Positions 8,336 to 62,370 of a stretch of 64,000 nt of DNA are shown here, one piece after another (position 1 is the stretch's first letter; the number at the start of each line of letters is the position of its first letter). Below the pieces are notes generated by a model that did not search any database, was not told where the DNA came from, and worked only from the letters and a program-made list of their open reading frames with translations. The stretch comes from Bosea sp. (in: a-proteobacteria) (GTDB taxonomy: Bacteria; Pseudomonadota; Alphaproteobacteria; Rhizobiales; Beijerinckiaceae), in contig NZ_JAMLIX010000002.1 in NCBI RefSeq assembly GCF_023953965.1, positions 255,637 through 319,636 on the forward strand, given 5' to 3'. Both the position numbers and the translations under genes were made by a program.

Positions 8336-8434
8336 TAGAGGCTCCGAGCCTTATTGTTCGGATATGGGCTGACGCGCGCGCCGGTGCTTGCCATGATGGC
8401 GTCGTCTGAATCGCATGCTGGAGGCATTGGGCTC

Positions 8435-9016: not shown

Positions 9017-9059
9017 CTTATCCTCGCGGGATGCTCTTAAGGGTTGTAGGAATATTGTC

Positions 9060-9088
9060 TTGACATCGTGGCGCTGATCGGGTAGAGA
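9060..9088 (+). promoter_or_regulatory. Candidate sigma70 promoter of the GTA cluster
   Basis: Perfect TTGACA at 9060-9065, 17-nt spacer, weak -10 (TAGAGA), in a locally AT-rich stretch. Confidence 0.5.
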
Positions 9089-9118
9089 TCGGGAACGCTC
9101 ACGAAATCCGCCCGAACG

Positions 9119-9151
9119 AAGCCGCCGCGCTGCCTCAGCCGGCGGCTTTTT
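9119..9151 (+). terminator. Intrinsic terminator-like hairpin directly upstream of the first GTA gene
   Basis: Arms AAGCCGCCG and CGGCGGCTT with an inner GCTG/CAGC stem and CCT loop, followed by TTTTT. Confidence 0.7.
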
Positions 9152-9176
9152 CGTGCCCGCAGCCGGAAGGGACGAC

Positions 9177-9527
9177 ATGGCCGAACAGCCCAAACGCAAG
9201 GCGGTCTCGCGCAAGGCGGTGGTGGGCCAGCTCTGGCGCGCCGCCAAGCGCCAGATCGACGCCCATGAGGACCATCTCGGCGACCTGCCGAAGGGCTCGA
9301 CCGTAAGCGAGGCCGACGCCAAGGCGCTGGCGACGCTCGCCCGCACGGTGCGCGAGCTGGTCGCGATCGACGAACCCCAGGCGGTGAAGAAGGACAAGCA
9401 GACGGATGATCTTTCCGCCGCCGACGGCCTGCGCCATGTCGCCGAGCTCCGCCGCGAGCTTGCCCGACGTCTTGAGGCTCTTGCCCGCCGCGAAATGGGC
9501 GAGGGTGATCCCGAGGATCCTGCCTGA
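9177..9527 (+). CDS. Putative GTA small terminase (g1-like)
   Basis: Small helical ORF with RBS (GGAAGGGA) immediately before and overlapping the large terminase; ALATLARTVRELVAID. Assignment is positional. Confidence 0.6.
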   Translation: MAEQPKRKAVSRKAVVGQLWRAAKRQIDAHEDHLGDLPKGSTVSEADAKALATLARTVRELVAIDEPQAVKKDKQTDDLSAADGLRHVAELRRELARRLEALARREMGEGDPEDPA

Positions 9528-10782: not shown

Positions 10783-10818
10783 CCTTCGCTTACTTCACGC
10801 TCCAACAGCGAGACATCC

Positions 10819-12000
10819 ATGTTCGATTTCCTTCGCAGCCTGCGCGGCCTTGCCGCGCCGGACCGGAAGCGCTCGCGTGTCGGGCCGCTGATCGCGCTCC
10901 ACGGGGCCGGGCGCGCCGTCTGGACGCCGCGCGACTATGTCGCGCTCGCCCGCGAGGGCTATGAGCGCAACCCGGTCGTGCATCGCTGCGTCCGCCTGAT
11001 CGCGGAGGCGGCCGCGCAGACGGCGCTCGTCGCCAAGGTCGGTGCCCGCGAGATGCCTGAGCATCCGGTGCTCGCCCTGATCGAGCGGCCCAATCCGCGC
11101 CAGGGCGGCATCGCCTTCCGCGAGATGCTGGTCGGCCACCTGCTCGTCGCCGGCAACGCCTATGTCGAGGCGGTGAGCGCAGGCCACGAGCCGCGCGAGC
11201 TCTATGCGCTGAGGCCCGACCGGATGCGGGTCGTGCCCGGCCGCGATGGCTGGCCGGAGGCTTACGACTACACTGTCGGCGGCGACACGGTGCGCTTCCG
11301 GCAGAACGAGGACGGCCTGCCGCCGATCCTGCACCTGACGCTGTTCCACCCCGTCGACGACCATTACGGCCTTTCGCCCATCGAGGCGGCGGCGGTCTCG
11401 CTCGACATCCACAACGCCGCCGGCGGCTGGCACAAGGCCCTGCTCGACAACGCGGCGCGGCCGTCGGGTGCCCTGGTCTATGACGGGCCGGAAGGCGCGA
11501 CGCTGACCGAGACGCAGTTCGAGCGGCTGAAGCAGGAGCTGGAGGATTCGTTCCAGGGCGCGCGCAATGCCGGCCGCCCGCTGCTGCTCGAAGGCGGGCT
11601 CGACTGGAAACCGCTCTCGCTGACGCCGGCGGAGCTGGATTTCGTCGCCGCCAAGGGCGTCGCGGCCCGCGAGATCGCGCTCGCCTTCGGCGTGCCGCCA
11701 CTCCTGCTCGGCCTGCCCGGCGACAACACCCACGCCAATTTCGCCGAGGCGAACCGCGCGCTCTGGCGCCAGACGGTGATCCCGCTGGTGCGCCGCACGG
11801 CGCAGTCGCTGGCGCAATGGCTCGGCCCGGCCTTCGGCGACGAGCTCACGCTGGAGCCCGATCTCGACGCCATCGAGGCGCTGGCCGACGAGCGCGAATC
11901 GCTCTGGCGGCGGCTGGGCAGCGCGTCCTTCCTCGACGAGGACGAGAAGCGCGAGGCGGTCGGCTACGGCCGGCGTGCCCCCGGGAAGGAGACCTCATGA
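10819..12000 (+). CDS. GTA portal protein (HK97 family)
   Basis: GYERNPVVHRCVRLIAEA, ALLDNAARPSGAL, NAGRPLLLEGGLDW and AFGVPPLLLG. Confidence 0.95.
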   Translation: MFDFLRSLRGLAAPDRKRSRVGPLIALHGAGRAVWTPRDYVALAREGYERNPVVHRCVRLIAEAAAQTALVAKVGAREMPEHPVLALIERPNPRQGGIAFREMLVGHLLVAGNAYVEAVSAGHEPRELYALRPDRMRVVPGRDGWPEAYDYTVGGDTVRFRQNEDGLPPILHLTLFHPVDDHYGLSPIEAAAVSLDIHNAAGGWHKALLDNAARPSGALVYDGPEGATLTETQFERLKQELEDSFQGARNAGRPLLLEGGLDWKPLSLTPAELDFVAAKGVAAREIALAFGVPPLLLGLPGDNTHANFAEANRALWRQTVIPLVRRTAQSLAQWLGPAFGDELTLEPDLDAIEALADERESLWRRLGSASFLDEDEKREAVGYGRRAPGKETS

Positions 12001-47096: not shown

Positions 47097-47192
47097 GAGC
47101 CGGGTAGCACGGCCGCCGGTTTGTGCTACTAAGCTGCGGTCCGGGCTCTGGGCGCCGTCGCGCCTCCGGCCCATGCCAGGGAACCGCCGCAG

Positions 47193-47861
47193 ATGCTTCG
47201 CGCCACCTCCGTTCTTCGCAAAGCCGCCGTCAAGGCCGATCGCGTCGCCGATACGATCGCGCTGGGCCACAAGGACCGCAACCGCGGCGGCGCCACCGTC
47301 ACGACGGCGGGCGGGCTGTCCGTCACGATCGACCTCGACAGGCCGGCGGTGCTGAACGACGGCGACGCGCTGAAGCTCGAGGACGGCCGCCTCGTCCAGG
47401 TCAGGGCCGCGGCCGAAAGCCTGCTCGAGATCCGCGCCGAGAACCCGCTGCGGCTCATCCGCCTCGCCTGGCATCTCGGCGGCCGTCACGTTCCGGCCGA
47501 GATGACGGCGGAGGCGCTCTATGTCGCCAACGACGCCGCGCTCGGCGAGCTGGTGCGCGGGCAGGGCTGCGCGATGAGCGTGGTCGAGCGCCCGTTCCAG
47601 CCGGAGCCGGAGGTCCGTCACCACGCCCATGGCGACGATTGCGGCTGCGGGCACGAACACCATCACCATGGCCACGATCATCATCACGGCGATGACCATG
47701 GCCACCGTCATGGGCATCATGGTCACGACCATGCGCATGCGCACGAGCACCATCATGCGCATGGCGAGGGTTGCGGCTGCGGCCATGACCACGGCCATCA
47801 CGATCATGGCCACGCTCACGGCGCGGCGCATGGCCACAAGGGCCATTCCCACGATCATTGA
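47193..47861 (+). CDS. ureE: UreE-like metallochaperone with a long His/Cys-rich tail
   Basis: LNDGDALKLEDG, RLAWHLGGRHVP and FQPE resemble UreE; the last ~80 aa are His-rich. Confidence 0.75.
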   Translation: MLRATSVLRKAAVKADRVADTIALGHKDRNRGGATVTTAGGLSVTIDLDRPAVLNDGDALKLEDGRLVQVRAAAESLLEIRAENPLRLIRLAWHLGGRHVPAEMTAEALYVANDAALGELVRGQGCAMSVVERPFQPEPEVRHHAHGDDCGCGHEHHHHGHDHHHGDDHGHRHGHHGHDHAHAHEHHHAHGEGCGCGHDHGHHDHGHAHGAAHGHKGHSHDH

Positions 47862-47876
47862 GGCGGCCGGCGCCGC

Positions 47877-49073
47877 CTATGCGGCGTAGCCCCTGACCTG
47901 CGCCAGCGCGGTCATGACGCCGCGCAGCTCGGCGAGCCCGCGCAGGCGCCCGACCGCCGGATAGCCCGGGAAGCTGCCCTTGCCGACGTCGTCGAGCAGG
48001 GCGTGGCCGTGGTCCGGGCGCATCGGGATCTGCCAATGCGGCTGGCCTTCAGCCTTCCGGCGCTGCTCTTCGGCCATCAGCGCGTCGACGAGCGCGACCA
48101 TGTCGGTGTCGCCGCTCAGATGCTCGGCCTCCATGAAGGAGCCGTCCGGCTGCTTGGCGACGTTGCGCAGATGCGCGAACCAGATCCTGTCGGCGAAGCG
48201 GCGCGCGATCGCCGGCACGTCGTTCCTCGGATTGGCGCCGAGCGAGCCCGAGCACAGCGTCAGCCCGTTCGCCGGTGAATCGACAGCACCGAGGATATAG
48301 GCGATGTCGTCCTCGTCCGAGCAGATCCGCGGCAGGCCGAACAGCGGGCGCGGCGGGTCGTCGGGATGGATGCACATCCGGATGCCGACCTCCTCGGCCG
48401 TCGGGACGATCGCCTCGAGGAAGCGCTTCAGGTTCTCGCGCAGCCGCTCATGCGTCATGCCGGCATAGCGTTCGAGGATGCGCGCCAGGCCCGGCAGGTC
48501 GTAGCGGTCGAAGGCGCCGGGCAGGCCCGCCATGACGCTCGACAGGAGCCGGTCGCGCTCGGCCTGGTCGGAGGCGTCGAACCAGGCTTTCGCTTTGTCC
48601 ATGACCTCGCGGGAATGGCCCTCCTCGGCGCCCTTGCGCTTCAGCATGAAGTGATCGAGCGCGACATATTCGTGCAGGTTGAAGCGCAGCGCCGTGCCGC
48701 CGCCGGGCAGCTTGTGGGCGAGCTCGGTGCGGGTCCAGTCCAGCACCGGCATGAAATTGTAGCAGATCACCTGAAGCCCGCAGGCGGCGAGGTTTCGCAT
48801 CGACTGGCGGTAGTTCTCGAAGATGGTTTCGAGGTCGCCTTCGCCGATCTTGACGCTCTCGTGGATCGGCAGGCTCTCGACCACGCTCCATCTCAGGCCG
48901 AGGCTGCCGTCGCCGCGGATGATCGCCTGGCGCTTCTCGATCTCGTCCACGCTCCAGACCACGCCATAGGGGATCTGATGCAGCGCGTTGACGATGCCGC
49001 TCGCTCCGGCCTGCCTGGCGTCGGTGAGCGTCACCACGTCGTCTGGCCCGAACCAGCGCCAGCATTGTTCCAT
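47877..49073 (-). CDS. uxuA: Mannonate dehydratase
   Basis: MEQCWRWFGPDD, WSVVESLP, CYNFMPVLDWTRT, IHPDDPP and PMRPDHG. Confidence 0.95.
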   Translation of the reverse strand: MEQCWRWFGPDDVVTLTDARQAGASGIVNALHQIPYGVVWSVDEIEKRQAIIRGDGSLGLRWSVVESLPIHESVKIGEGDLETIFENYRQSMRNLAACGLQVICYNFMPVLDWTRTELAHKLPGGGTALRFNLHEYVALDHFMLKRKGAEEGHSREVMDKAKAWFDASDQAERDRLLSSVMAGLPGAFDRYDLPGLARILERYAGMTHERLRENLKRFLEAIVPTAEEVGIRMCIHPDDPPRPLFGLPRICSDEDDIAYILGAVDSPANGLTLCSGSLGANPRNDVPAIARRFADRIWFAHLRNVAKQPDGSFMEAEHLSGDTDMVALVDALMAEEQRRKAEGQPHWQIPMRPDHGHALLDDVGKGSFPGYPAVGRLRGLAELRGVMTALAQVRGYAA

Positions 49074-49121
49074 GGTCGGATATCCTTCGCGCGAGGCTGC
49101 TGTATCGAAAAAAGGGTCGCG

Positions 49122-49817
49122 TCAGGGGGTGTCGTGGGCGAGGCGGGAATCGTCGAACACGTCGGCATGATCCTTGGCGATCGTCTCGATCGTCGCGAAG
49201 ACGGTGCGCAGATGCGCGCGCATCGCAGCCTCGGCGGCTTTCTCGTCGTGCCTGACGATGCAGGCCGCGATGATCCTGTGCTCGCGCAGGATCACCTGCG
49301 ACCAGGACGGCGTTTCGAGCGAGAGGCAGCGCACCCGGTCCATCTGGGCCTTCACCCCCTCGATCACGCTCCAGACGGCGCGGTGGCCGGCGATGCGCGA
49401 GATCTCGGCATGGAAGACCTCGTCGAGACGGAAGATCTCGGCCCGGTCCTGCCGCTCGACGGCCCGCGCCTGCTCCTCGACCAGCGCCTCGAGCCGCTGC
49501 CTGCCGGCCACGCCGATGCGCTGGGCGGCGAGCACCACGGTGCGGCATTCCAGCGTCTCGCGCACGAACTGGCTGTCATGCACCGCGGCGAGGTCGATCG
49601 GCGCGACGAAAGTGCCGACCTGCGGCACCGCGACCAGGAAGCCTTCCTCGACGAGCCGCTTGAACGCCTCCCTGACCGGCGTGCGGCTGACGCCGAAGCG
49701 CAGCGCCATGCGCGCCTCGGACATCGATTCGCGCGGCTTCAGCGCGCCGCTGACGATGTCGGTGCGCAGCACGCTGTAGATCTGGTCCGTGCTGTGACGC
49801 GTTGCAGGATGGGCCAT
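49122..49817 (-). CDS. GntR-family (FCD) transcriptional regulator
   Basis: wHTH FGVSRTPVREA and FCD domain (DEVFHAEI, EHRII). Start ATG 49817. Confidence 0.92.
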   Translation of the reverse strand: MAHPATRHSTDQIYSVLRTDIVSGALKPRESMSEARMALRFGVSRTPVREAFKRLVEEGFLVAVPQVGTFVAPIDLAAVHDSQFVRETLECRTVVLAAQRIGVAGRQRLEALVEEQARAVERQDRAEIFRLDEVFHAEISRIAGHRAVWSVIEGVKAQMDRVRCLSLETPSWSQVILREHRIIAACIVRHDEKAAEAAMRAHLRTVFATIETIAKDHADVFDDSRLAHDTP

Positions 49818-49834
49818 TGCCAAGCTCTCGACGA

Positions 49835-49846
49835 CTAGTATACTAG
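49835..49846. promoter_or_regulatory. GntR/FadR-VanR-type operator
   Basis: Perfect palindrome CTAGTATACTAG matching TNGTATACNA, in the divergent intergenic region. Confidence 0.7.
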
Positions 49847-49975
49847 GATACCGATCAACCGGGGGCTGCGTCAACTTGGCAGCGTCCGCGGGTGAGGGCC
49901 GGGCGCCGGATGGCGGGGCCGGACCGGCATACGACAAAACGTCAAGAAGCGGGTGTCCGCATCGGGAGGAGCATC

Positions 49976-51166
49976 ATGGGTCAGGACAACATCAATCGGC
50001 GTCATTTTCTCGGCGGCGTCGCCGGGCTTGGCGTGGCTGCGCATGCGCCGGGCGCCTTCGCGCAGCAGCTCAAGCTGCCGACCTCGCCGGTGGCGCTGTC
50101 GATCGTCGACGTCGCGGGCAATCTCGCCCTGACGCAGCGGGCCATCGAGAACTATCGCAAGGCCAAGCCCAACGTCGTCTCGCGCATCACCTTCACCAAG
50201 GCGCCGGCGCCGGAGCTGCCGGGCAAGATCAAGGCCCAGCAGGCCGCCAACCGCGTCGACATCGACATGGTGCTGACCGGCACCGACGCGCTCTCGGCCG
50301 GCATCAGCCAGAATCTGTGGGTGCCGCTCCTGCCGCAGCAGGCCGCCAACCTGCCGAAGCTTCAGGATATCTTCCTCGAGGGCGCCTGGAAGATGCAGGG
50401 GCTGGCCGGCGGGCAGGGCGTCGTCGTGACCTATTACCCCTCCGGCCCGCTCATCCAGTACATGCCCGACAAGGTCAAGACGGTGCCGACCACGGCCGAG
50501 GAGCTGATGGCCTGGACCAAGGCCAACAAGAACCGCCTGATCTATGCCCGCCCGGCGAATTCCGGACCGGGGCGCACCTGGATCATGGGCCTGCCCTACA
50601 TCCTCGGCGACAAGGACCCGAAGGACCCCGAGAAGGGCTGGGACAAGACCTGGGCCTATCTCAAGGAACTCGGCGAGAACATCGAGTACTATCCCGCGGG
50701 CACCGGCGCGGTGATGAAGGAGCTCGGCGACGGCTCGCGCGACATGACGCTGACCACCACGGGCTGGGACATCAACCCGCGCGCGCTCGGCGTCGTGCCG
50801 AAGGAGTCCAAGGTCGGCGCGATCAAGGGTTTCCACTGGGTCACGGACGCGCATTACATGTGCATCCCGAAGGGCGTCTCGGACGAGAAGCTCGCCGTCC
50901 TCCTCGACCTGATGAACTTCCTGCTCACCAAGGAGCAGCAGGCCTACACCTTCGACGAGGGTTATTTCTATCCGGGCCCGGCGGTGAAGGGCGTGACGCT
51001 CGACATGGCGCCGGAGGACAGCCAGAAGGTGATCAAGGAGTTCGGGCGGCCGGAATATGCCCAGCTGATCGCGGACAATCCGCTCGAGGTGCCGCTCGAT
51101 CCCGACAAGATGGTCATCGCCTTCCGCATCTGGGACGAGCAGGTCGGCGGCGCCAAGAAGAAGTAG
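49976..51166 (+). CDS. ABC transporter substrate-binding protein (PotD/Fe3+-like fold), Tat-exported
   Basis: NRRHFLGG twin-arginine signal; YARPANSGPGRT. Confidence 0.88.
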   Translation: MGQDNINRRHFLGGVAGLGVAAHAPGAFAQQLKLPTSPVALSIVDVAGNLALTQRAIENYRKAKPNVVSRITFTKAPAPELPGKIKAQQAANRVDIDMVLTGTDALSAGISQNLWVPLLPQQAANLPKLQDIFLEGAWKMQGLAGGQGVVVTYYPSGPLIQYMPDKVKTVPTTAEELMAWTKANKNRLIYARPANSGPGRTWIMGLPYILGDKDPKDPEKGWDKTWAYLKELGENIEYYPAGTGAVMKELGDGSRDMTLTTTGWDINPRALGVVPKESKVGAIKGFHWVTDAHYMCIPKGVSDEKLAVLLDLMNFLLTKEQQAYTFDEGYFYPGPAVKGVTLDMAPEDSQKVIKEFGRPEYAQLIADNPLEVPLDPDKMVIAFRIWDEQVGGAKKK

Positions 51167-51278
51167 CCCGCGGGCTGTCGGCCAGGGCCCCGGCGGGGCC
51201 TTGGCCCGCTCACGCGACCGGGAGCCGTCCCCGTCGGGGCGGCCCCGCCATGCCAGCTGTTTCACAAGCCCGGACGCC

Positions 51279-52352
51279 ATGACCATCAACGCAGCCTCCT
51301 TTCGCGAGCTCAGGCTCGACCGCCTGAGCCGTGACTTCGGCACCCACAACGCGCTCAAGGATGTCTCGCTGACGATCGGCAAGGGCGAGTTCATCGCCCT
51401 TCTCGGCCCTTCGGGCTGCGGCAAGTCGACGACGCTGAACCTGATCGCGGGCTTGCTGCCCGCGACCGGCGGCGGGATCTGGCTCGACGACAGGCGCATC
51501 GACCCCTTGCGGCCGGAGGAGCGCGGCTTCGGCATGGTCTTCCAGAACTATGCGCTCTTCCCGCATATGACGGTGGCGAAAAACATCGGCTTCGGCCTGA
51601 AGATGCGCGGCACGCCCAGGGCCGAGATCGACCGGCGCGTCGCTGAAGCCGCGGCGCTGGTGCATCTGCAAGGCCAGACCGAGAAGCTGCCCGGCCAGCT
51701 TTCCGGCGGCCAGCAGCAGCGCGTCGCCATCGCGCGCGCCATCGTCGTCGAGCCGCCGCTGGTGCTGATGGACGAGCCGCTCTCCAATCTCGACGCCAAG
51801 CTGCGTCTCGAGATGCGCGCCGAGATCCGCCGCATCCACAACACGCTCGGCGCCACCACGATCTACGTCACCCACGACCAGGAGGAGGCGATGTCGCTCG
51901 CCGACCGCATCGTCGTGCTGCGTGACGGGCAGGTCCGCCAGGTCGGCACGCCGGAGGACCTGTTCTCGCGGCCCGACCACCTCGACGTCGCCGAGTTCAT
52001 GGGCTTCCGCAACAAGGTCGCGGGCAAGGTCGCGAGCGTCGCCGAAGGCCGCGCCACCGTCGCGCTGGGGGAGGCCGCGTTGTCCGGCCGTACCCGTCGC
52101 GCGCTTACCGCCGGCGGCGACGCCTGGCTCGCCATCCGGCCCGAGGATCTGCACCCGGTCGCGGCCGGCGAGCCCGGCCTGAAGGCCGAGGTCGTCTCGA
52201 CCGAGTTTCGCGGCCGCGAATTCGTCGGCTTCGCCCGCATGGCCGACGGCACCGATTTGTCCTTCCTCGCCGCGCAGAAGCTGACGCCGGGCGAGGCGGT
52301 GACGCTTTCCGCCGATCCCGAACGCGTCCTCGTCTATGGAGGCGCGGCGTGA
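51279..52352 (+). CDS. ABC transporter ATP-binding protein (PotA-like)
   Basis: GPSGCGKST, VFQNYALFPH, LSGGQQQR and DEPLSNLD. Confidence 0.93.
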   Translation: MTINAASFRELRLDRLSRDFGTHNALKDVSLTIGKGEFIALLGPSGCGKSTTLNLIAGLLPATGGGIWLDDRRIDPLRPEERGFGMVFQNYALFPHMTVAKNIGFGLKMRGTPRAEIDRRVAEAAALVHLQGQTEKLPGQLSGGQQQRVAIARAIVVEPPLVLMDEPLSNLDAKLRLEMRAEIRRIHNTLGATTIYVTHDQEEAMSLADRIVVLRDGQVRQVGTPEDLFSRPDHLDVAEFMGFRNKVAGKVASVAEGRATVALGEAALSGRTRRALTAGGDAWLAIRPEDLHPVAAGEPGLKAEVVSTEFRGREFVGFARMADGTDLSFLAAQKLTPGEAVTLSADPERVLVYGGAA

Positions 52353-53236
52353 GCACGGACACCTCCATCCCGCTGAAGCAGCGGCTGGCGGCGCGCGGCC
52401 TCGACGGGCTGACGCTGCTCGTCCTGCCGGCGGTCCTGTTCCTGCTGGCGCTGTTCATCTACCCGTTCCTCTACGGGCTCGTGCTCTCCTTCGAGCCGAA
52501 GGAGGGCGGCATCTTCGCCAATTACCAGCGCTTCTTCTCGGATTCCTTCCTCTACGGCACGATCGCGACGACGCTCTGGCTCGCGCTTCCGGTGACGGTC
52601 GCGACGCTGGCGCTGGCGATCCCGATCTCCTTCCGCGTCCGGCTGATGAAGAACCAGCGCCTGCTCACCACGATCCTGGTGATCCCGATCACGCTCGGCA
52701 CGGTCCTGGTCGCGCAAGGTCTCCTGAACTATCTCGGCCCGCAGGGCTGGTTCAACCGCGTGCTGATGGCGGTGGGCCTGATCTCCTCGCCGGTGAAGCT
52801 TCTGCACAATTACTGGGGCGTGATGCTCTCGCTGGTGATCACCGGCTTTCCCTTCACCTTCCTGCTGACGCTCTCCTATCTCTCCGGCATCGACCCGGCG
52901 CTGGAGCAGGCGGGGGCGACGCTGGGAGCGGGGCCGTGGGAGCGCTTCAGGCACATCCTGTTCCCGCTGCTGCTGCCGGGGCTCGCCATCACCTTCTGCC
53001 TGAGCTTTGTGCAGGCTTTCTCGGTCTTTCCCTCGGCGGTGCTGCTCGGCGCGCCGGCGGGGCCGACCCGCGTGATCTCGATCGCCGCCTATCAGGCCGC
53101 CTTCGAGGATTACGACTACTCCATGGCCTCGGCGATCGCGATGATCATGGCGCTGGTGCAGTTCGCCATCGTCGTCCTGGTGCTGGGCGCGCGCGGCTTG
53201 CTGTATCGCGGCCCGGCCGGCGGCGGAAAGGGCTGA
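52349..53236 (+). CDS. ABC transporter permease (PotB-like)
   Basis: Hydrophobic helices; EAA-loop LEQAGATLGA. Confidence 0.9.
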   Translation: MSTDTSIPLKQRLAARGLDGLTLLVLPAVLFLLALFIYPFLYGLVLSFEPKEGGIFANYQRFFSDSFLYGTIATTLWLALPVTVATLALAIPISFRVRLMKNQRLLTTILVIPITLGTVLVAQGLLNYLGPQGWFNRVLMAVGLISSPVKLLHNYWGVMLSLVITGFPFTFLLTLSYLSGIDPALEQAGATLGAGPWERFRHILFPLLLPGLAITFCLSFVQAFSVFPSAVLLGAPAGPTRVISIAAYQAAFEDYDYSMASAIAMIMALVQFAIVVLVLGARGLLYRGPAGGGKG

Positions 53237-53240
53237 TCCG

Positions 53241-54071
53241 ATGGTCAAGGACACCCGGCTCTCGACGAAGCTGTGGGCAGCCGCGAACTGGGCGCTGATC
53301 GCCTTCTTCGTCGTCAACCTGTTCGGGATGATCGCGACGGTGGTGACGTCGTCCTTCGCGACGCGCTGGCTCGGCACCTGGCTGCCCGCCGGCTGGACGA
53401 CGCGCTGGTATTCCTCCGCCTGGGCCGAATTCCAGCTCTACGACGTGCTGCTCGTCACCTTCCAGATCGTCTTTTTGGTGGTGGCGCTGTCGGGGCTGAT
53501 CGGCGTGCCGGCGGCCTATGCGCTGGCGCGACGCGATTTTCCCGGCAAGAAGCTCGTGATGCTGCTGTTCCTCTTGCCCTTGCTGGTGCCGCCGATCACC
53601 TTCGGCATTCCGCTCGCGACCGTGCTCTACCAGACCGGTTTCGCCGGCCAGATGTCGGGCGTGGTGCTGGCGAACCTGGTGCCGACGGTGCCTTTCGTCA
53701 TCCTGGTGATGATCCCCTTCATCGAGCAGATCGACACCAAGATCGAGCAGGCGGCGCGCGTCTTCGGCGCCAATACCTTCAAGCTCTTCGTGCATGTGCT
53801 GTTGCCGCTCCTGCTGCCGGGCATCCTGGCGGCGCTGCTGCTCGTGCTGGTCCGGACGCTCGCCATGTTCGAACTGACCTTCCTGACGGCCGGCCCGACC
53901 AGCCAGACGCTCGTCGTCGCGCTCTACTACGCCGTCTTCGCCGCCGGCGTGCGCGCGGTGCAGTCGATCGATGCCATGGCGGTGATCTACATGATCACGA
54001 CGCTGATCTGGCTCGTCATCGCGCTGCGCTTCGTCAACCCGACGCAGATCGTCGCCCGCGCCAAGAAGTGA
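53241..54071 (+). CDS. ABC transporter permease (PotC-like)
   Basis: EAA-loop IEQAARVFGA. Confidence 0.9.
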   Translation: MVKDTRLSTKLWAAANWALIAFFVVNLFGMIATVVTSSFATRWLGTWLPAGWTTRWYSSAWAEFQLYDVLLVTFQIVFLVVALSGLIGVPAAYALARRDFPGKKLVMLLFLLPLLVPPITFGIPLATVLYQTGFAGQMSGVVLANLVPTVPFVILVMIPFIEQIDTKIEQAARVFGANTFKLFVHVLLPLLLPGILAALLLVLVRTLAMFELTFLTAGPTSQTLVVALYYAVFAAGVRAVQSIDAMAVIYMITTLIWLVIALRFVNPTQIVARAKK

Positions 54072-54103
54072 GGGCGCGGTCTGCGGAGCAGACGGCGCTT
54101 TCG

Positions 54104-54508
54104 CTACCGCCTCGGAGGCGCCGATTTGTCAATCGCGACGCCGTCCAGCTCGATGAGATAGCCGTGGTGTAGTTCAGGAACAGGCACCACCGAGCGGGCC
54201 GGCCTGTGCTCTCCGAATAACGCCGAGAAGGCCGTGTTGAACGCAGGCCAGTTTTCGACCCCGACGATATAGGCCGTGACCTTTACGACGTCTTCGCGGC
54301 GCCCTCCGGCTGCCGCGACGATGGCCAGGAAATTCTGGACGACGAGCGTCGCCTGCTCCGGGAACGCGCGAGGCACGCAGCCTGGCGCTTCTCCCGGCCG
54401 GATCGGCAGTTGCCCGGAAACATGGACGAGGCCGGCCGCCCTGATGCCTTGCTGATAGTGACCGAGCGGTTGCGGAGCCTGATCGGTTGTGACGGGGGAC
54501 AAGGTCAT
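54104..54508 (-). CDS. RidA/YjgF-family imine deaminase
   Basis: APQPLGHYQQ, VSGQLP, RPARS (catalytic Arg) and LIEL. Start ATG 54508. Confidence 0.9.
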   Translation of the reverse strand: MTLSPVTTDQAPQPLGHYQQGIRAAGLVHVSGQLPIRPGEAPGCVPRAFPEQATLVVQNFLAIVAAAGGRREDVVKVTAYIVGVENWPAFNTAFSALFGEHRPARSVVPVPELHHGYLIELDGVAIDKSAPPRR

Positions 54509-54532
54509 CGGAACGAACATCCTGTCTTGCTG

Positions 54533-54673
54533 CGGAAGAAGCGGATTCCGCTTCTCGGTCCGATGCTCCAGATCGTCGCGCGTCCTATCGGACGCGATAA
54601 CGATGATCTATCTCATTGCTGGAGCATCGGATTTTTCCAAAAAATGGGTCTATTTTTCGGTCCGATGCCCTAG
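54533..54673. repeat. Mosaic of palindromic repeats R2-R3-R2
   Basis: Partial R2 at 54533-54571, R3 at 54568-54614 and R2 at 54619-54673. The final CTAG supplies the TAG stop of the upstream M24 gene. Confidence 0.75.
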
Positions 54674-55866
54674 CGATCTGCCGTGGAGAACGCCTTCCGG
54701 GGCGCCTGTGTCAGGCGGCGCGCGCCGTCGTCCGTGACGAGAATGGTCTCGCTGAAGGCCAGCCCCTGCGCGGAGGTGTACATGTGAAAGACCATGCCCG
54801 CTTCCAGCCGCCAGTCCGCATTCGGCCTGAATGTCCGGGTGAAGTCGCTCGACCTGATCGCCGCGGTTCCGTAGAATCCGAGCGTATAGCCGGTGATGTT
54901 CGCATAGCTTTCGCGAAGCCCGGCATCGAGGACGCCCTGTCTCAGGATGGCGTCCACGTCGCGTGCGATGGCGCCGGGCTTCATCGCCTCGAACTGCCGA
55001 TCCTGGAGGGCGACGAGTTTGTCCGCCTTGTCCTGCAACGGCGCGGCGATCGGCCCGATGACGACGGACCGCATCAACCGCGCGCCGTAGCCGCGCATCC
55101 GCGGCGTCAGCTCCAGATGCAGGATGTCGCCGTCGCTCAAGGGCGTCGTGCTCATCGCGGCATGGAGAAATCCCCAGCCCTTTCCCGCGGTGATGGGGCC
55201 GATATGGTGGGTGCTGCCGCCGAGCGCGATGTAGCGGCCGGCGGCGTAGCCGGATATGCCGCGCGTGGTGTCTCCGGCCCGGGTGTATTCGGCGATTTCC
55301 GAGACGATCGTGTCGGCGATGGCGGCCGCCGCCGTGATATAGGCGATTTCATGCCGGCTCTTGATCAGGCGGTTCTCCCAGAGCAGGCCGCCGAGATCGA
55401 CGAGCTGCGCGGAAGGAAGCGCCCGCTGCAGGCGGTTGAAGGTCGCGACCGTCAGCGCATGACTGCCGAAGTCGATTCCGATCGGCCGGGACGCGATCCC
55501 GAGCTTGCCGGCGACCTCCGCGACGCGGGCGACCGGATCGTCGTCATCGCGATAGCCGACCGCCTCCGACATCCACGAGGCGGCGCGAAACGGATCCAGA
55601 TCCAGAGCGCGCAACACCATCACGGGAGCGCCCTCGGCCGGAACGACGCAGGCCCGGTAATAGCTTACGGTGCGCTCGTAATTGCAGATATAGGACAGGA
55701 TCTCCTGGTCGTCGATGATCGCCCCGGCGAGATTGCGGTCCTTCAGCTGTCCTTGCAGGCGCGCGAGGCGCTGCTCGAACTCCTCGCGCGGAAAATCGGG
55801 GACCTGAAACGGGGAGGTCGCCATGGCCTCGTCCCAGCCGTTGCGCGAGGATGCAGGTTTTTTCAT
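54670..55866 (-). CDS. M24-fold hydrolase, creatinase/ectoine-hydrolase (DoeA/EutD)-like
   Basis: Creatinase-type N-domain, IKS..EI, TGYTLG, GMVFH and SETILVT; most dinuclear metal ligands are missing. Alternative start 55824. Confidence 0.75.
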   Translation of the reverse strand: MKKPASSRNGWDEAMATSPFQVPDFPREEFEQRLARLQGQLKDRNLAGAIIDDQEILSYICNYERTVSYYRACVVPAEGAPVMVLRALDLDPFRAASWMSEAVGYRDDDDPVARVAEVAGKLGIASRPIGIDFGSHALTVATFNRLQRALPSAQLVDLGGLLWENRLIKSRHEIAYITAAAAIADTIVSEIAEYTRAGDTTRGISGYAAGRYIALGGSTHHIGPITAGKGWGFLHAAMSTTPLSDGDILHLELTPRMRGYGARLMRSVVIGPIAAPLQDKADKLVALQDRQFEAMKPGAIARDVDAILRQGVLDAGLRESYANITGYTLGFYGTAAIRSSDFTRTFRPNADWRLEAGMVFHMYTSAQGLAFSETILVTDDGARRLTQAPRKAFSTADR

Positions 55867-55923
55867 CGCAGTGCCTTCCGTGGGAGCGTGTCTGATCCGA
55901 AAGCCGTCACCGGGCCAGCCCCT

Positions 55924-57501
55924 TCAGCCGACAGGCGCGGGCGAGGCTGCCATGAGCTCGCGTGTATAGGGTTGAACCTCGCCGCCGTTCACTTGCGCGA
56001 TGCTGACCAGATCGATCAGATCGCCGTCGCGCATGACGGCGATCCGGTGTGCGATCTGCCGGACGAGATTGAGATCATGCGTGATGAACAGGTAGGCGGT
56101 TTCATATCTGCGCCGCAACGAGATCAGCAGCTCGATGACCGAGGCCTGGACCGAAACGTCGAGCGGGGCCGTGATCTCGTCGCAGATGATCAGCTCGGGC
56201 TTGGCGGCAAAGGCGCGCGCGATCGCGACCCGCTGTTTTTCACCGCCCGAAAGCTGATGGGGATAGCGCCGCCCGTAATCGGCGGGCAGCCGGACCTGCT
56301 CGAGCAGCGCGGGGATTTCGGCGACGTCGCCACCGTAGAGCTTGAGCGGCCTGGACAGGATCTGGGCGACGGTCTGGCGTGGGTTCAGCGACGAATCCGG
56401 GTGCTGGAAGATGATCTGGACGCGGCGCCGGTAATCCTTGCTCAGATCGCCGCGCGCGGAGATCGGCACGCCGTCCAGCGTGATCTCCCCTGTGAAGCTC
56501 GCCAGCCCGGTCATCGCCCGCGCCACGGAGGATTTGCCGGAGCCCGATTCCCCGACGAGACCGAGGATCTCGCCTTTGCGGACGTCCAGTGTGGCGCCGG
56601 ACGTCACCGGCTTGGGGGCCGGCGCGAACAGCTTCTGCGTCTGGTACCAGACCTGAAGATCCTTGACGGCGAGCAGGGGGGCCGCGGCGGGCGCATCGTC
56701 GATCAGGCGATGGTCGGGGCGGGGCACGGCGTCGACCAGCCGGCGCGTATAGGGATGCTGCGGCTGCCGGAAGATCGTCTTGGCGGGCGCCTCCTCGACG
56801 ATGTCGCCCTTTTCCAGGACCAGGACACGGTCGGCGACGCGCGAGACCAGAGCAAGATCGTGCGAGATATAAAGCGCCGCGACGCCGGTCTCGTCGCGCA
56901 GCCGGCGGAACAGCTCGAGGATCCTGGCCCCGGTGATGACGTCGAGCGCCGTTGTCGGCTCGTCGAAGACGATCAGCTCCGGCCGGCAGGCGAAGGCGGT
57001 CGCGATGATGACGCGCTGCTTCTCGCCCCCCGATGCCTGATGCGGGTAGCGACGCATCAGCCCCTCGACATCGCGAAGCTCGACATGGGTGAGCGCCTCG
57101 GCCCCGGCCGCCCAGGCTTCGGCCTCGGACATCCCGCGATGGGTGACGAGGACCTCGGTGATCTGGCGGCCGATCGTCAGCGTCGGATTCAGGGCCGTCG
57201 CCGGGTCCTGGAAGACCATGCTCATCCGGCTGCCGCGGATCGACGTCAGCGCTTCGTCCGACAGGCCGCACAGATCGGTGTCGCGCAGCTTGATCGCGCT
57301 GCCGGCCGCCTCCCTGGCGTTGCGGGGCAGGTAGCGCATGATGGCCCATGCGAGCGAGGACTTGCCCGAGCCCGATTCGCCGACGAGGCCGACGACCTCG
57401 CCGGCCGCGATGTCGAAGGAGATGTCCTTCAGGACCTGATGCGTGCCGAAGCGGCCGGCATAGGCCAGCCCGTAGTTCCGAATGCTGAGCGCCGCGGTCA
57501 T
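55924..57501 (-). CDS. Fused dual ABC ATPase (peptide/nickel/opine family)
   Basis: Two GESGSGKSS Walker A motifs, ASGGEKQR and LSGGEKQR. Start ATG 57501. Confidence 0.92.
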   Translation of the reverse strand: MTAALSIRNYGLAYAGRFGTHQVLKDISFDIAAGEVVGLVGESGSGKSSLAWAIMRYLPRNAREAAGSAIKLRDTDLCGLSDEALTSIRGSRMSMVFQDPATALNPTLTIGRQITEVLVTHRGMSEAEAWAAGAEALTHVELRDVEGLMRRYPHQASGGEKQRVIIATAFACRPELIVFDEPTTALDVITGARILELFRRLRDETGVAALYISHDLALVSRVADRVLVLEKGDIVEEAPAKTIFRQPQHPYTRRLVDAVPRPDHRLIDDAPAAAPLLAVKDLQVWYQTQKLFAPAPKPVTSGATLDVRKGEILGLVGESGSGKSSVARAMTGLASFTGEITLDGVPISARGDLSKDYRRRVQIIFQHPDSSLNPRQTVAQILSRPLKLYGGDVAEIPALLEQVRLPADYGRRYPHQLSGGEKQRVAIARAFAAKPELIICDEITAPLDVSVQASVIELLISLRRRYETAYLFITHDLNLVRQIAHRIAVMRDGDLIDLVSIAQVNGGEVQPYTRELMAASPAPVG

Positions 57502-58328
57502 CGGTCGTCCCTCGGATTCAGCGCATCCCGCAACCCGTCGCCCAGGAGGTTGAAGCAGATCGCGGTCAGGGCGATGGCCAGCGAGGGGAAGATGATGACC
57601 CAGGGGGCCTGATGCAGGTAATGGCGCGCCTCGGAGACCATCAGCCCCCATTCGGAAGCCGGCGGCTGGGCGCCCAGGCCGAGGAACGACAGCGTCGCGA
57701 ACGACATGACGGCGAAGGAGACGCGGATCGTCGCCTCGACGATCACCGGGGCGGCGACGTTCGGCAGCATCTCGCGGAAGACGATCCAGCTGCCGCTCTC
57801 GCCGCGCGCGATCGCAGCCTTCACGTAATCCTGCTGGCGCACGGAGAGCGCGACGGAGCGCGTCACGCGCGCCATGCTGGGCGCGAACGAGATGCCGATC
57901 GCCAGGGCGGCGTTCAGGCTTCCCTTCCCCAGCGAGCTGACCAGGATGAGCGCCAGCAGAAGATGCGGGATAGCCAGGATCGCGTCGACGGTGCGCATGG
58001 TGAATTCGTCCCAGCGGCCGCCCAGATACGCCGACAGCGTCCCGATCGTCGCGCCCAGCGCCGTGCCGAAGAACGTCGCGAACAAGGCGAGCGGTATGGT
58101 CGCATAGGCGCCGACGAGGAGGCGGCTCAGCACGTCGCGGCCGAGCTGGTCGGCGCCGAACCAGTGCTTCGCGCCGGGCGGCGCGAAACGCCCGAGAAAA
58201 TCGATGGCATCGGGCTCGTAGGGGGCAACGAACCGCCCGAAGACGCACATCGACAGCAGCACGAGCAGAAGTCCCGTGCCGATGACGCCCTGGGGTGTCC
58301 GCCAAAGCCGGTAGAGAGCGTCATGCAT
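57498..58328 (-). CDS. Peptide-type ABC permease (OppC-like)
   Basis: HWFGADQLGRDVLSRL, LSFLGLG and FNLLGDGLRDALNP. Confidence 0.92.
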   Translation of the reverse strand: MHDALYRLWRTPQGVIGTGLLLVLLSMCVFGRFVAPYEPDAIDFLGRFAPPGAKHWFGADQLGRDVLSRLLVGAYATIPLALFATFFGTALGATIGTLSAYLGGRWDEFTMRTVDAILAIPHLLLALILVSSLGKGSLNAALAIGISFAPSMARVTRSVALSVRQQDYVKAAIARGESGSWIVFREMLPNVAAPVIVEATIRVSFAVMSFATLSFLGLGAQPPASEWGLMVSEARHYLHQAPWVIIFPSLAIALTAICFNLLGDGLRDALNPRDDR

Positions 58329-59268
58329 AGCGGATTCGCCGGTCGACGAGCGCATAGGCGACGTCCGCCAGGGTGTTCGCCAGAGCATAGGTCGTCGCCA
58401 TGATCACCGCTCCCGCCTGGATGGAAGGAAGATCGCGGGAGGTGATGGCGACGATGAGCGCGCGTCCGATCCCGGGAATCGCGAAGATCTCCTCGACCAC
58501 GATGATCCCGCCCAGAATATAGCCGACGTCGAGCGCGACGATCGTGATGGTGGGGATCATCGCGTTCCTGAGGATGTGGCGCCTCAGGACGATGCGGCCC
58601 GGCAGCCCCTTCAGCCGGGCGGCGCGGACATAATCGCTGTGAATGACGTCGATCGTCTCCGAGCGCACCATCCGCGAGGCGTGCGCGACCATGATCAGCG
58701 AAACCGTGAGGACCGGCAGCACGAGATGGCGGATGGACTCGATCGGGTTTTCCATGAAGGGGACGAAGCCCGTCGCCGGGAGCAGCTGAAGCTGGCTGGC
58801 GAAGACGAGGATCAGCAGCGTCGCCGTCACGAACTCCGGCAGCGAGACGCCGAAATACGAAAACAGGCTGGCGAGGACGTCCAGCGCCGTCCCGCGCTTG
58901 AGAGCCGCGAGGACGCCGATCGGCACCGCGATGACCAGCATCAGGACGAGAGCCGCGCTTCCGAGCAGAAGCGAGCGGCCGAGCGCCGTGAACATCGCAG
59001 GCCCCACCGGTTGCCCGGTGCGCATCGAGGTGCCGAAATCGCCTTGCAGCATGCTCGAGAGCCAGTGCCAGAACTGGATATAGACCGGATTGTTGAGACC
59101 CATCTGCTCGCGAACGGCCGCCAGAGCCTCGGCCGTCGCGTTCTCTCCCAGCAGCGTCACGGCCGCGTCGGCGGGCAGGACCTGCGTGATTCCGAAGACG
59201 ATCACGGAAACGACGAGGAGCGTGTAGATGGTCGTCAATATTCTCCGGACGATCCAAGATACCGACAC
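58321..59268 (-). CDS. Peptide-type ABC permease (OppB-like)
   Basis: GDFGTS, DYVRAARLKGL and EEIFAIPGIG. Confidence 0.92.
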   Translation of the reverse strand: MSVSWIVRRILTTIYTLLVVSVIVFGITQVLPADAAVTLLGENATAEALAAVREQMGLNNPVYIQFWHWLSSMLQGDFGTSMRTGQPVGPAMFTALGRSLLLGSAALVLMLVIAVPIGVLAALKRGTALDVLASLFSYFGVSLPEFVTATLLILVFASQLQLLPATGFVPFMENPIESIRHLVLPVLTVSLIMVAHASRMVRSETIDVIHSDYVRAARLKGLPGRIVLRRHILRNAMIPTITIVALDVGYILGGIIVVEEIFAIPGIGRALIVAITSRDLPSIQAGAVIMATTYALANTLADVAYALVDRRIRYA

Positions 59269-59272
59269 GAGG

Positions 59273-60832
59273 TCACCCTCTCTTTGGCGCGCCCTGATCC
59301 AGCCAGACCCGTTCGAAGCGGAACATCGCTCCGGTGGGGTGATGCTCGTATCCCTTCACGTAGTTGCGATGGCCTGCCAGCAGATCGAAGAAAATCGGGA
59401 TGACCGACGGCACCTGCTCGCTCATCAGGTCTTGCGCACGCGCGTAAAGCTCGCGGCGGCGGCCTTCGTCGCTGACGGCGCGTGCCTCGGCCACCAGCTT
59501 GTCGAAGTCGGCGTTGTTCCAGCGGGTCTCGTTCCACGCCGAATCGGAGGTGTAGAGCTGCGAGAAGATCTGGTCCGCGGTCGCCTGGGCCGCATAGGAG
59601 CCGACATAGAAGCTGCCCTTCTTCCAGACCTGGTCGAGATAGGCCGCATGCGGCATGGTCTGGACGTTGATCCGGAAGCCGGCCGGACGGGCCATCTCCC
59701 GCATGGCGATCGCGAGCTGCGCGCGCGTGCCCGGGTTCTCAGAGGCCACGAGCGTGACATCGAGGCCGTCCGGATAACCCGCCTCCGCGAGAAGCTTCTT
59801 CGCCGCGGCCATGTCGGCCTTCTTCAGCGGAAGCTGCTTATAGTAATAATAGGAGGGGTTCAGCGGAGTGTCGGCGCCGGTCTGGCCCAGCCCGTGCGCG
59901 ATGAAGCCGACCAGCGCCTCGCGATCGACGGCGAGCGACAAGGCCTTGCGGACACGGACATCGTCGAACGGCTTCTGGTCGCAACGCATGTTGACGTTGA
60001 GGAACCGGCCCGAGGGCTTTTGAATCGCGGTCACGCCGCTGGTCTTCGACAGCCGGCCGAACTCGCTCTGGCTGACCGTCACCATCAGGTCGTTGTCGCC
60101 GGCGATCAGCGCCGACGTCTCCGCGGCGTTGTCCGGGTAGACCCGGATCTCGATGCGGGCGAGGTAAGGCTGGTCGGGAATGAAGTAGTTCGGATTGCGC
60201 TCGACGACGACGAGCCGGTCCGGCTCGAACGAAACCAGCTTGAACGGACCGGTTCCGATCCCTTCGCGGGACAGGCGCGCATAGTCGCCCTTGGCGATGG
60301 CCTCGGGGATGATCCGGGCCGTGGTGTAGGCGACGGCGACGGGGAAATCCGCCGAGGGCGCGCCGAGCTTCATGACGACGGTCGTATCGTCGACGACGAC
60401 GACCTCCTTGAGGGCGCCCAGCGCCGTGCGCGCCGTCGAGGCCATCTTCGGGTTGAGCATGGCCTCGAAGCTCGCCGCGACATCCTTGGCCGTGCAGGGC
60501 GAGCCGTCGTGGAAGCGAACGCCGGGGCGAAGCTTGAACGTCCACTCCGTCAGCTCCGGATTGGAGCTCCACGACTCGGCCAGGTCCGGCTCCGGCGCCA
60601 TGTCCTGCTTGAGCTTGACGAGGTTGCTGTAGATCAGGCCTCCGACCAGATGCTCCGGAACCACGCGGGTCAGCTGGGGGTGGATGACCGACGGTGCCTG
60701 GTCGACGGATATGCGCAGCGTCCCGCCCGGACGCGGAGTCGATGCGGATTGCTGGCCAAGCACAGTGTTTGCTTGTGAAAACAATGCCAGAGAAGTTCCC
60801 GTGGCGAGCAAGGAGCGACGAGTCAAGAGCAT
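59273..60832 (-). CDS. Family-5 ABC substrate-binding protein, Tat-exported
   Basis: MLLTRRSLL signal; PDLAESWS, LRPGVRFHDG and GTGPF. Confidence 0.92.
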   Translation of the reverse strand: MLLTRRSLLATGTSLALFSQANTVLGQQSASTPRPGGTLRISVDQAPSVIHPQLTRVVPEHLVGGLIYSNLVKLKQDMAPEPDLAESWSSNPELTEWTFKLRPGVRFHDGSPCTAKDVAASFEAMLNPKMASTARTALGALKEVVVVDDTTVVMKLGAPSADFPVAVAYTTARIIPEAIAKGDYARLSREGIGTGPFKLVSFEPDRLVVVERNPNYFIPDQPYLARIEIRVYPDNAAETSALIAGDNDLMVTVSQSEFGRLSKTSGVTAIQKPSGRFLNVNMRCDQKPFDDVRVRKALSLAVDREALVGFIAHGLGQTGADTPLNPSYYYYKQLPLKKADMAAAKKLLAEAGYPDGLDVTLVASENPGTRAQLAIAMREMARPAGFRINVQTMPHAAYLDQVWKKGSFYVGSYAAQATADQIFSQLYTSDSAWNETRWNNADFDKLVAEARAVSDEGRRRELYARAQDLMSEQVPSVIPIFFDLLAGHRNYVKGYEHHPTGAMFRFERVWLDQGAPKRG

Positions 60833-61059
60833 GGATTTCCTCCCCGATTGTTGCGTATAGTCGTCTTGTTCAGCGTGCTAAACGCCGGTAAGATTGTAGT
60901 TTCGATTGCTTTTATCTCTTGTCGCGCGCCAATGGCTCAGGAGGACGGGCGCAAGATATGGCCGAACGGCTTGCGACCAGAAACGGCTTCGCGTTCCTGC
61001 TGCAGTCAATCCGCAACGATCCGGTCCAAACGATCATTCGGGCAAACTGGCGAAATGCA

Positions 61060-61078
61060 GATAAATTGTCAATATATC
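61060..61078. promoter_or_regulatory. Near-perfect 19-bp palindrome containing a minus-strand TTGACA, upstream of the island operon
   Basis: GATAAATTGTCAATATATC versus its reverse complement GATATATTGACAATTTATC. Confidence 0.45.
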
Positions 61079-61120
61079 GTTTGTGTTCGGGGCCGCGAAC
61101 CGCGGTGGAACCCAGGCGCA

Positions 61121-61324
61121 GCCAGGCTGCCGCTTCAGCAGCGCGAGGGTCGCGGCCTTGCAGCGTAAAGGAGCCTTGCCGACCTCGCATAGGTCGTCGA
61201 TATGGAGGGGCGATGAGGTTGGGGCTCGGCCGCGATGGCCCGGCGTCGCGCATCTTCGCATGGAGGTCCTTTCGGCGGATCTGGACACGCCAGGACTTGG
61301 AGGAAGGCTTCGTGAAGGTGGCAT
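61121..61324 (-). pseudogene. Decayed N-terminal remnant of a dusA-associated tyrosine integrase
   Basis: Three minus frames give consecutive blocks (A)TFTKPSSKSWRVQIRRK, EDARRRAIAAE and LHIDDLCEVGKAPLRCKAATLALLKRQPG, matching my recollection of alphaproteobacterial dusA-linked integrase N-termini. Divergent from dusA. Confidence 0.7.
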
Positions 61325-61377
61325 AGTTTCATATGCGGGCGAGGTCACCAAACAGATTGATTCTGCCGAAAAATGCC

Positions 61378-62370
61378 ATGAAATATCAGATGCATAGATT
61401 CGCCGTGGCACCGATGATGGACTGGACCGACCGCTATTGCCGGCTCGTCCATCGCCTGCTGTCGCGCCATGCTCTGCTCTATACGGAGATGGTGACGGCG
61501 CAGGCGGTGATCCGCGGCGACCGGGAGCGCCTGATCGGCTTCGACGCGCTGGAGCACTCCGTCGCGCTTCAGCTCGGCGGCAACGACCCGGCCCTGCTCG
61601 CCGAGGCCGCGAAAATCGGCGCCGATGCCGGCTATGACGAGATCAACCTGAATTGCGGCTGCCCTTCTGACCGGGTGCAGGGCGGGGCCTTCGGCGCCTG
61701 CCTGATGCGCGAGCCGGCGCTGGTCGGCGATTGCGTCGCGGCGATGAAGGCGGCGGTCCGGGTCCCCGTCACGGTGAAGTGCCGCATCGGGGTCGACGAT
61801 CAGGACCCCGAGGCCGCCCTCGACGCATTTGCCGCCGCCGCGACGGCAGCCGGCGTCGACGCCCTGATCGTCCATGCCCGCAAGGCGTGGCTCAAGGGGC
61901 TCTCGCCCAGGGAGAACCGCGAGATCCCGCCGCTCGACCATGCGCGCGCCTACCGCCTGAAGGCGGCCAATCCCGATCTTCCGGTCAGCCTGAACGGCGG
62001 CATCGTCGATCCGGCGGAATGGCTGCCGCATCTGGAGCATGTCGACGCCATCATGGTCGGCCGCGAGGCTTACCGGAACCCGGAGATCCTGCTCAGGGTC
62101 GATCCGCTGCTCTACGGCACGCCGGCGCCCGTGCCGGACGCCTTTGCCATGCTGGAGGCGCTGGAGCCGCACATCGCCGCGCATCTGGAGCGGGGCGGGC
62201 GGCTGCATGCCTTCACCCGCCATCTCGTCGGACTGTTCCCCGGCCGTCCGGGCGCGCGCCTCTTCCGCCGCCACCTCGCCGAGCGCTGCGTCGGCGCCGA
62301 TGCGGGGCTGGACGATCTGCGCGCGGCCGTGGCTCATCTCTCCCGCCACGAGGCGGCCGTGGCCGCGTGA
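61378..62370 (+). CDS. dusA: tRNA dihydrouridine(20/20a) synthase
   Basis: RFAVAPMMDWTD, LYTEMV, QLGG, INLNCGCPSDRVQ, TVKCRIG and HARKAWL. Confidence 0.96.
   Translation: MKYQMHRFAVAPMMDWTDRYCRLVHRLLSRHALLYTEMVTAQAVIRGDRERLIGFDALEHSVALQLGGNDPALLAEAAKIGADAGYDEINLNCGCPSDRVQGGAFGACLMREPALVGDCVAAMKAAVRVPVTVKCRIGVDDQDPEAALDAFAAAATAAGVDALIVHARKAWLKGLSPRENREIPPLDHARAYRLKAANPDLPVSLNGGIVDPAEWLPHLEHVDAIMVGREAYRNPEILLRVDPLLYGTPAPVPDAFAMLEALEPHIAAHLERGGRLHAFTRHLVGLFPGRPGARLFRRHLAERCVGADAGLDDLRAAVAHLSRHEAAVAA

Follow-up and report, generated by a model that had tools for sequence, protein, structure and literature searches.

An integrase remnant and an island-type dusA start point to a decayed dusA-specific island in a Bosea genome

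What is the unannotated stretch beside dusA in this Bosea genome, and where does the unusual start of the gene come from? We addressed these questions in a window of 64,000 nt (positions 255,637 to 319,636 of contig NZ_JAMLIX010000002.1), in which dusA lies on the plus strand (61378-62370) and encodes a full-length Dus protein. In the published islands of dusA-associated integrases (DAI), the 5' sequence of dusA is island-derived and the original 5' end is found at the far side. A pair of ~21-bp semiconserved att direct repeats flanks these islands, as reported for all 94 islands examined (Farrugia et al. 2015, Nucleic Acids Res 43:4547, PMC4482086). The original prediction for the present locus was that three minus-strand frames next to dusA are the ghost of such an integrase, left behind by an island that also supplied the start of the gene. 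We put the probability that a dusA-specific island integrated at the 5' end of dusA in this Bosea lineage, and then decayed, at about 0.88. The features on which this reading is built are collected in Table 1.

Table 1. Features between the conserved permease gene and the end of dusA, in window coordinates.
Feature	Position	Strand	Basis or remark
Native flank: last permease gene of a conserved ABC operon	53241-54071	+	blastn synteny
Left (distal) junction	54082-54103	.	ends homology to empty-site relatives
RidA/YjgF gene, last of the putative cargo operon	54104-54520	-	PF01042, E 8.7e-26; GC3 0.755
M24 / creatinase-like hydrolase gene	54670-55866	-	PF00557, PF01321
Fused double ABC ATPase, oligopeptide/dipeptide type	55924-57501	-	PF00005 (two stretches), PF08352
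Two ABC permease genes, DppC and DppB type	57498-58388, 58321-59268	-	PF00528, PF12911, PF19300
Family-5 solute-binding protein, first operon gene	59273-60832	-	PF00496
AT-richer 270-bp spacer (GC 0.53-0.56), putative operon promoter region	60833-61102	.	composition
Ghost piece C, LHIDDLCEVGKAPLRCKAATLALLKRQPG(CAWVPP)	61103-61207 (61121-61207, extending to 61103)	-	integrase residues 67-101
Ghost piece B, EDARRRAIAAE	61225-61257	-, second frame	integrase residues ~31-41; DNA alignment to L083-L087
Ghost piece A, ATFTKPSSKSWRVQIRRK	61269-61322 (to 61324 with disrupted start codon)	-	integrase residues 2-19
Rest of island-type int-dusA intergenic region	61325-61377	.	shortened by ~66 bp relative to relatives; ends in conserved GAAAAATGC
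Island-supplied dusA 5' end	61378-61398	+	ATG AAA TAT CAG ATG CAT AGA (MKYQMHR); AT-rich, rare AGA
Native dusA body	61399-62370	+	intact; Pfam PF01207, E 1e-78
Conserved VAPMMDWTD-coding core	61405-61430	+	taken as att target

Integrase remnant beside dusA

We found the three pieces exactly as they had been described, in three different reading frames of the minus strand and within ~220 bp (61103-61322). When positions 60850-61400 were compared by BLASTX with 120 intact integrases, piece A matched residues 2-19 (up to 83% identity) and piece C matched residues 67-101 (up to 65% identity, E down to 1e-6), and the two matches were collinear. The reference proteins matched are intact tyrosine integrases of 353 residues, encoded divergently beside dusA in other Alphaproteobacteria. 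Piece B showed clear homology in the DNA alignment to remnants in congeneric species (L083-L087), where its counterpart reads DDARRWAIEAE; relative to these it is flanked by deletions of ~22 and ~58 bp.

An N-terminal family profile (HMM of the first 112 residues of 68 family members) was run against the 105,861 six-frame segments of the genome (two contigs, 4.53 Mb in total). Its top two matches genome-wide were pieces A and C (E 0.008 and 0.36), which lie 60 bp apart on the same strand, in the right order, beside dusA. Single pieces scored weakly in genome-wide tblastn (E ~0.3), so the case for the ghost is built on the collinear order and position of the pieces and on their homology, at the DNA level, to longer remnants. 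This homology was found in a DNA search, where positions 61121-61220 were 77-85% identical to dusA-side integrase remnants in other Bosea (E down to 2.5e-24). The remnants matched have the same position and orientation beside dusA and span residues 1-118, 1-159, 1-188, 1-204 and 1-209. Selection on this 100-bp block was considered and rejected because of ascertainment bias, the remnants having been found by that very block; L002, G038 and G100 are without it. No paralogous integrase was found in the genome with tblastn of the ghost pieces, and none of its 11 PF00589 loci lies near dusA or is related to the ghost.

The ghost ends after residue ~101; residues ~102-353 are missing, the whole catalytic domain included, and no intact tyrosine-recombinase domain (PF00589) is present there. 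With nothing kept beyond this point it is a pseudogene remnant of a family member and not a working member, and it is among the most eroded of the dusA-side remnants in Bosea. Reduction of the gene to ~200 bp had been predicted, close to the ~220 bp that we find. Taken together, the alignments support the view that the ghost is the N-terminal wreck of a dusA-associated integrase gene.

The start of the ghost can be aligned in two ways. The loss of a single base had been proposed (ATG-CC-ACC against ATG-GCC-ACC), and the reading ATGCCACC, one base short of ATGGCCACC, does fit the alignment to the intact gene of L107. However, the spacer between integrase and dusA in relatives (L083-L087, L002, L107) carries the direct repeat TTTCGTGTGC twice, ~66 bp apart, and the ~66 bp that separates the copies is missing from the window (61320-61345), apparently through a repeat-mediated deletion. 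Because of this repeat and gap, MAFFT favours an alignment that has the original start codon among the lost bases. This alignment and the first fit about equally well, so that the one-base loss stands as one of two fits; judged from either, the reading frame is dead. The ghost start region (61322-61324) is separated from the dusA ATG by 53 bp, the two being on opposite strands. A consensus scan of 60700-61500 gave no match to the sigma-70 promoter consensus or a terminator, and Rfam gave none in 60500-61600; the promoter role of the island-derived region upstream of dusA is putative.

A match of the ghost to the DAI family had been proposed, and we could support it through intact relatives. 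These lie divergent from and directly upstream of dusA in L058 (an uncultured alphaproteobacterium; 353 aa), L028 (a Methylocapsa MAG), L053 (a Mesorhizobium MAG), L017, L052 and L067 (other MAGs) and L107 (Bosea sp. NPDC055332). PF00589 is present in the intact relatives, and Pfam assigns a Phage_integrase domain to the L058 protein. Among 50,697 phage records, the best matches of the L058 integrase include BcepIL02 (Burkholderia), H66 (Pseudomonas) and mEp460 (Escherichia), with 37-38% identity over >92% of the length (E 1e-53 to 1e-58). All three phages are named as DAI homologues by Farrugia et al., whose query was the DAI of A. baumannii D1279779 and who give identities within the family down to 22.8% (PMC4482086). 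Through the L058 integrase family and these phages, the ghost is indirectly linked to the DAI family.

Origin of the dusA start and of the adjoining segment

The 5' end of dusA had been singled out as AT-rich, in agreement with a GC content of 0.55 at 61300-61499 against 0.69-0.76 in the remaining gene. In a nucleotide alignment, similarity to native-type dusA begins at ~61399. The protein starts MKYQMHRF in the window (codon 8 TTC). Beside integrases elsewhere, dusA starts MQPDQSF·RF (L058), MQLNQEF·IF (L028), MQKKQDY·RF (L047) and MQQYQVF·RF (L107), and these four share an AGA or ATA codon and the conserved GAAAAATGC motif upstream. The native starts of Bosea, found in empty-site relatives, are GC-rich with CGC, as in ATGACCTTGCCGCTCCCGAATATGCGCTTC (MTLPLPNM·RF). 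Alignment with such island-free relatives, which had been proposed as a check, showed that the window start differs from the native type: its first seven codons and the 50 bp upstream align with integrase-side or remnant-side regions, not with empty-site relatives such as L003. Comparison with ten Bosea species gave dN/dS of 0.14-0.21 for the body of the gene, showing it to be under purifying selection.

We searched the 4.5-Mb genome for a displaced native dusA 5' fragment by blastn-short, using the native 5' regions of six relatives, and only dusA and the permease end were matched. Neither a displaced 5' fragment nor a second att core turned up in searches of the window, the whole genome or the 10 kb beside intact integrases. 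Allowing up to 4 mismatches in 26, we found a single copy of the dusA core GTGGCNCCGATGATGGACTGGACCGA in the genome. The search that the original prediction had suggested for the displaced fragment therefore yielded none in the window or the whole genome. Since no native 5' fragment is left in the genome, the island-supplied ATG is the only start of dusA, in line with the claim that the host now depends on it. DusA would here be translated from the start codon of a since-dead mobile element, as the product of a chimeric housekeeping gene.

Comparison with relatives showed that dusA in the window adjoins an inserted segment. From the permease end to the dusA crossover point we measured ~7.3 kb (7.33 kb; 54082-61398), as opposed to 78-184 bp in seven species (G073, G051, G094, G074, G026, G015 and G047) whose permease gene is 90-93% identical to that of the window. 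In L003, a Bosea MAG with an empty site, window positions 47103-54081 correspond to 2946-9935 and positions 61399-62370 to 10004-10975, and only 70 bp separates the two aligned blocks. GC3 of the segment genes is 0.76-0.89, compared with 0.93-0.94 in the flanking genes, and the overall GC content of the segment places it at the 14th percentile genome-wide. No orthologue of the operon was found in 100 other Bosea species, the best match of the solute-binding protein being 59-63%. Its closest match anywhere (80%) comes from a metagenome contig of 2.6 kb and has a further binding protein next to it, and the next (70%) lies in an unrelated context; the cargo operon was not found beside dusA or an integrase in these nearest relatives. 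Pfam searches detected no mobile-element genes in 54104-60832, and a DNA search found no homologue of the spacer (60833-61102) in 100 Bosea genomes, the match beginning at 61121.

The low GC3, the lack of Bosea orthologues and the insertion position indicate that the segment is of foreign origin and occupies the very place expected of a DAI island. On this basis the RidA/M24/ABC-importer operon is probably cargo of the dusA island. The idea of a locked-in cargo thus finds agreement in position, lower GC3 and missing orthologues, but not in the lack of mobility genes or in the contexts of the nearest relatives, and no link between the operon and DAI islands elsewhere was found. Positions 54082-61398 should be treated as a horizontal acquisition, a point to consider in any reading of the RidA/M24/importer operon. 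Two long open frames, of 998 aa (54616-57612, plus strand) and 125 aa (61034-61411, minus strand), are antisense to real genes or overlap the ghost. They are typical artefacts of high GC and could be mis-called as genes.

At the left junction, homology to empty-site relatives stops ~10 nt past the permease stop codon and ~20 nt before the RidA stop. The att copy has been lost here, as have the displaced native start of dusA and ~40 nt of the native spacer. With no recombinase and no second att site, we predict that the segment 54082-61398 is immobile and that its excision as a circle, with native dusA restored, would fail. Lock-in had been ascribed to reduction of the integrase, and no working integrase is left, but the loss of the far att site, which had been missed, implies immobility as well. 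Because neither a far att site nor a displaced dusA fragment marks the boundary, the extent of the island cannot be defined.

Bosea survey, proposed history and alternatives

We surveyed the dusA 5' regions of 92 other Bosea species genomes (L108-L199), which together with the window genome gave 93. An island-type start (MxxYQxx·RF) was found in 27 of the 93 species, and an intact integrase of the ghost's subfamily in none. Integrase remnants lie beside dusA in 12 other Bosea (G092, G070, G028, G002, G093, G034, G001, G027, G025, G038, G008 and G100), whereas the remaining island-type species (about half of the 27) have no integrase sequence within the 2.3 kb examined. In one of the latter, G006, a ghost lies ~2.3 kb upstream, and a clade of five species has a fossil in common. 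A tree of dusA without its 5' end, indicative only since it covers a single gene, requires 15 changes of the island-type label, of which well-supported branches force at least 6; the average for shuffled labels is 18.6. The window dusA is placed, weakly, with native-type species. We rejected the idea that all island-type Bosea inherited one ancient fossil, as truncation points, frameshifts and neighbours differ and the label is scattered on the tree.

Several loci add observations of their own. Bosea sp. OK403 (L005, from G006) carries an integrase ghost together with an orphan island-type dusA 5' fragment (L005:7583-7850, core at 7826). Its working dusA lies 2.2 kb downstream and has a second, different island-type start, MQHYQSH; the two tandem fossils (the second at L005:9990-10050) suggest serial integration and decay. 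In three species (G050, G079 and G095) dusA is accompanied by an intact integrase of the more distant L053-like subfamily; the dusA starts of these species end ...(A/P)W·R(L/F)SV, so some starts scored as native may be a second island type. In the close relative G100 (G100:C1:2261792-2334658; L111, L242), ~71 kb lies between the conserved permease gene and dusA. It was rejected as a model of the intact island, since its integrase has an internal deletion of residues ~34-225 and its far junction ends just before the native ATG site, with no native dusA fragment. The permease-dusA interval is 52 kb in G087 and 26 kb in G067. A topoisomerase IB gene is found directly upstream of dusA in several Bosea (L007, L008, L011) and is absent from the whole window genome.

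The following history would account for the locus, in an order of events that we infer. A tyrosine recombinase of the DAI family, encoded on the island, would have joined the island att to the VAPMMDWTD-coding stretch of dusA. The island would have brought replacement first codons and an upstream region, so that dusA was kept whole with the integrase divergent beside it. The integrase gene may then have lost everything past residue ~101, and three internal deletions would have left 220 bp in three frames. A deletion that took the far island end, ~40 bp of native intergenic DNA and the dusA 5' fragment displaced by the island would leave the immobile 7.3-kb segment and a dusA that uses only the island-supplied start.

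Three other explanations were weighed against this history. The strongest of them, which we still consider unlikely, is that the island is gone save ~300 bp (the ghost and the dusA start) and that the 7.3-kb operon arrived in a later, separate insertion or recombination that replaced the interior and the far end. It agrees with the lack of mobile-element genes in the operon, with solute-binding protein homologues that have no integrase or dusA nearby, with the abrupt end of the ghost at a 270-bp spacer without a homologue in 100 Bosea genomes, and with other Bosea remnants that abut different ordinary metabolic genes. Such an event would, however, have had to strike the same few hundred bases and to remove the far end as well, while the segment fills exactly the gap of 78-184 bp in the seven close relatives. 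The GC3 below that of the flanks and the absence of an orthologue in the genus also count against this alternative, and metabolic cargo has been reported for DAI islands (PMC4482086).

A far less probable course is that no integration took place in this lineage, and that homologous recombination spanning dusA and its flank brought in the dusA 5' region of another Bosea, dead integrase remnant included. At least 12 other Bosea species do carry homologous dusA-side remnants, to which the ghost is 77-85% identical over 100 bp, and recombination could give the same scatter of the island-type label on the dusA tree. Yet no sampled species shares the deletions of the ghost or its neighbouring sequence, and the dusA body groups with native-type species. 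Moreover, the identity of the ghost (70-85%) is comparable to that of dusA third codon positions (68-75%), which points away from a recent donor among 100 species. That the peptide matches arose by chance in GC-rich intergenic DNA, with the AT-rich dusA start a native variant, we regard as almost certainly wrong, in spite of pieces only 11-35 residues long and the weak single-piece tblastn score. This explanation is already contradicted by the profile search, in which the two best-scoring segments were adjacent and in order, and by the DNA matches (E ~1e-24), which link the pieces to remnants running to 159-209 integrase residues; the same type of dusA start also occurs beside intact integrases in four distant genomes. 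Integration of a dusA-specific island, followed by its decay, remains our preferred reading.

Comparison with known dusA islands

The window holds the decayed representative of a class of elements already described; it reveals no new mechanism and leaves what is known of the island mechanism unchanged. What is modestly new is that in Bosea the island-supplied dusA start routinely outlives the island. We lean towards regarding this start and its upstream region as a scar that persists long after the island has gone. In that case the N-termini of dusA could record past island residence across the genus, and repeated fixation would speak for a neutral or even favourable effect of the island-derived start and putative promoter after loss of the native fragment. 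Dead dusA islands are several-fold commoner than live ones in Bosea, and island finders based on integrases miss such fossils; in the present genome, the ghost explains the unannotated stretch beside dusA. The published account of DAI islands mentions phage remnants and not orphan 5' ends (PMC4482086).

The locus agrees with the published islands in several respects (PMC4482086). The integrase adjoins the 5' end of dusA and is divergent from it, the 5' end is island-supplied, and the target is a conserved 5' coding stretch of dusA. The divergent position and the replacement of the 5' end, which the original prediction had given as typical of DAIs, are thus both stated in the literature and matched here. 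The family also occurs in Alphaproteobacteria, and the intact relatives of the ghost match the same phage integrases (BcepIL02, H66, mEp460). The window differs from those islands in that its integrase is a ~220-bp wreck in three frames with no catalytic domain, in that the second att repeat and the original dusA 5' end at the far side are missing, and in that the 7.3 kb kept here is without mobility genes.

Within the genus, the window ghost and the 12 other Bosea remnants are homologous pseudogene pieces in the same position, all inactivated and all next to an island-type dusA start. Truncation points (residues 22 to 209), frameshifts and neighbouring genes nevertheless differ from one of the 12 to the next. 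The intact DAI island of L107 (integrase P0116, 353 aa) belongs to the same genus and integrase subfamily and has the same divergent arrangement, with an integrase-dusA distance of 113 bp and a dusA start (MQQYQVF·RF) that likewise contains AGA. In contrast to the window, where a transport operon follows the ghost, the L107 integrase is whole and is followed by accessory or defence-like genes (HTH_3, CTD10/DUF2326, MC6, DUF2971).
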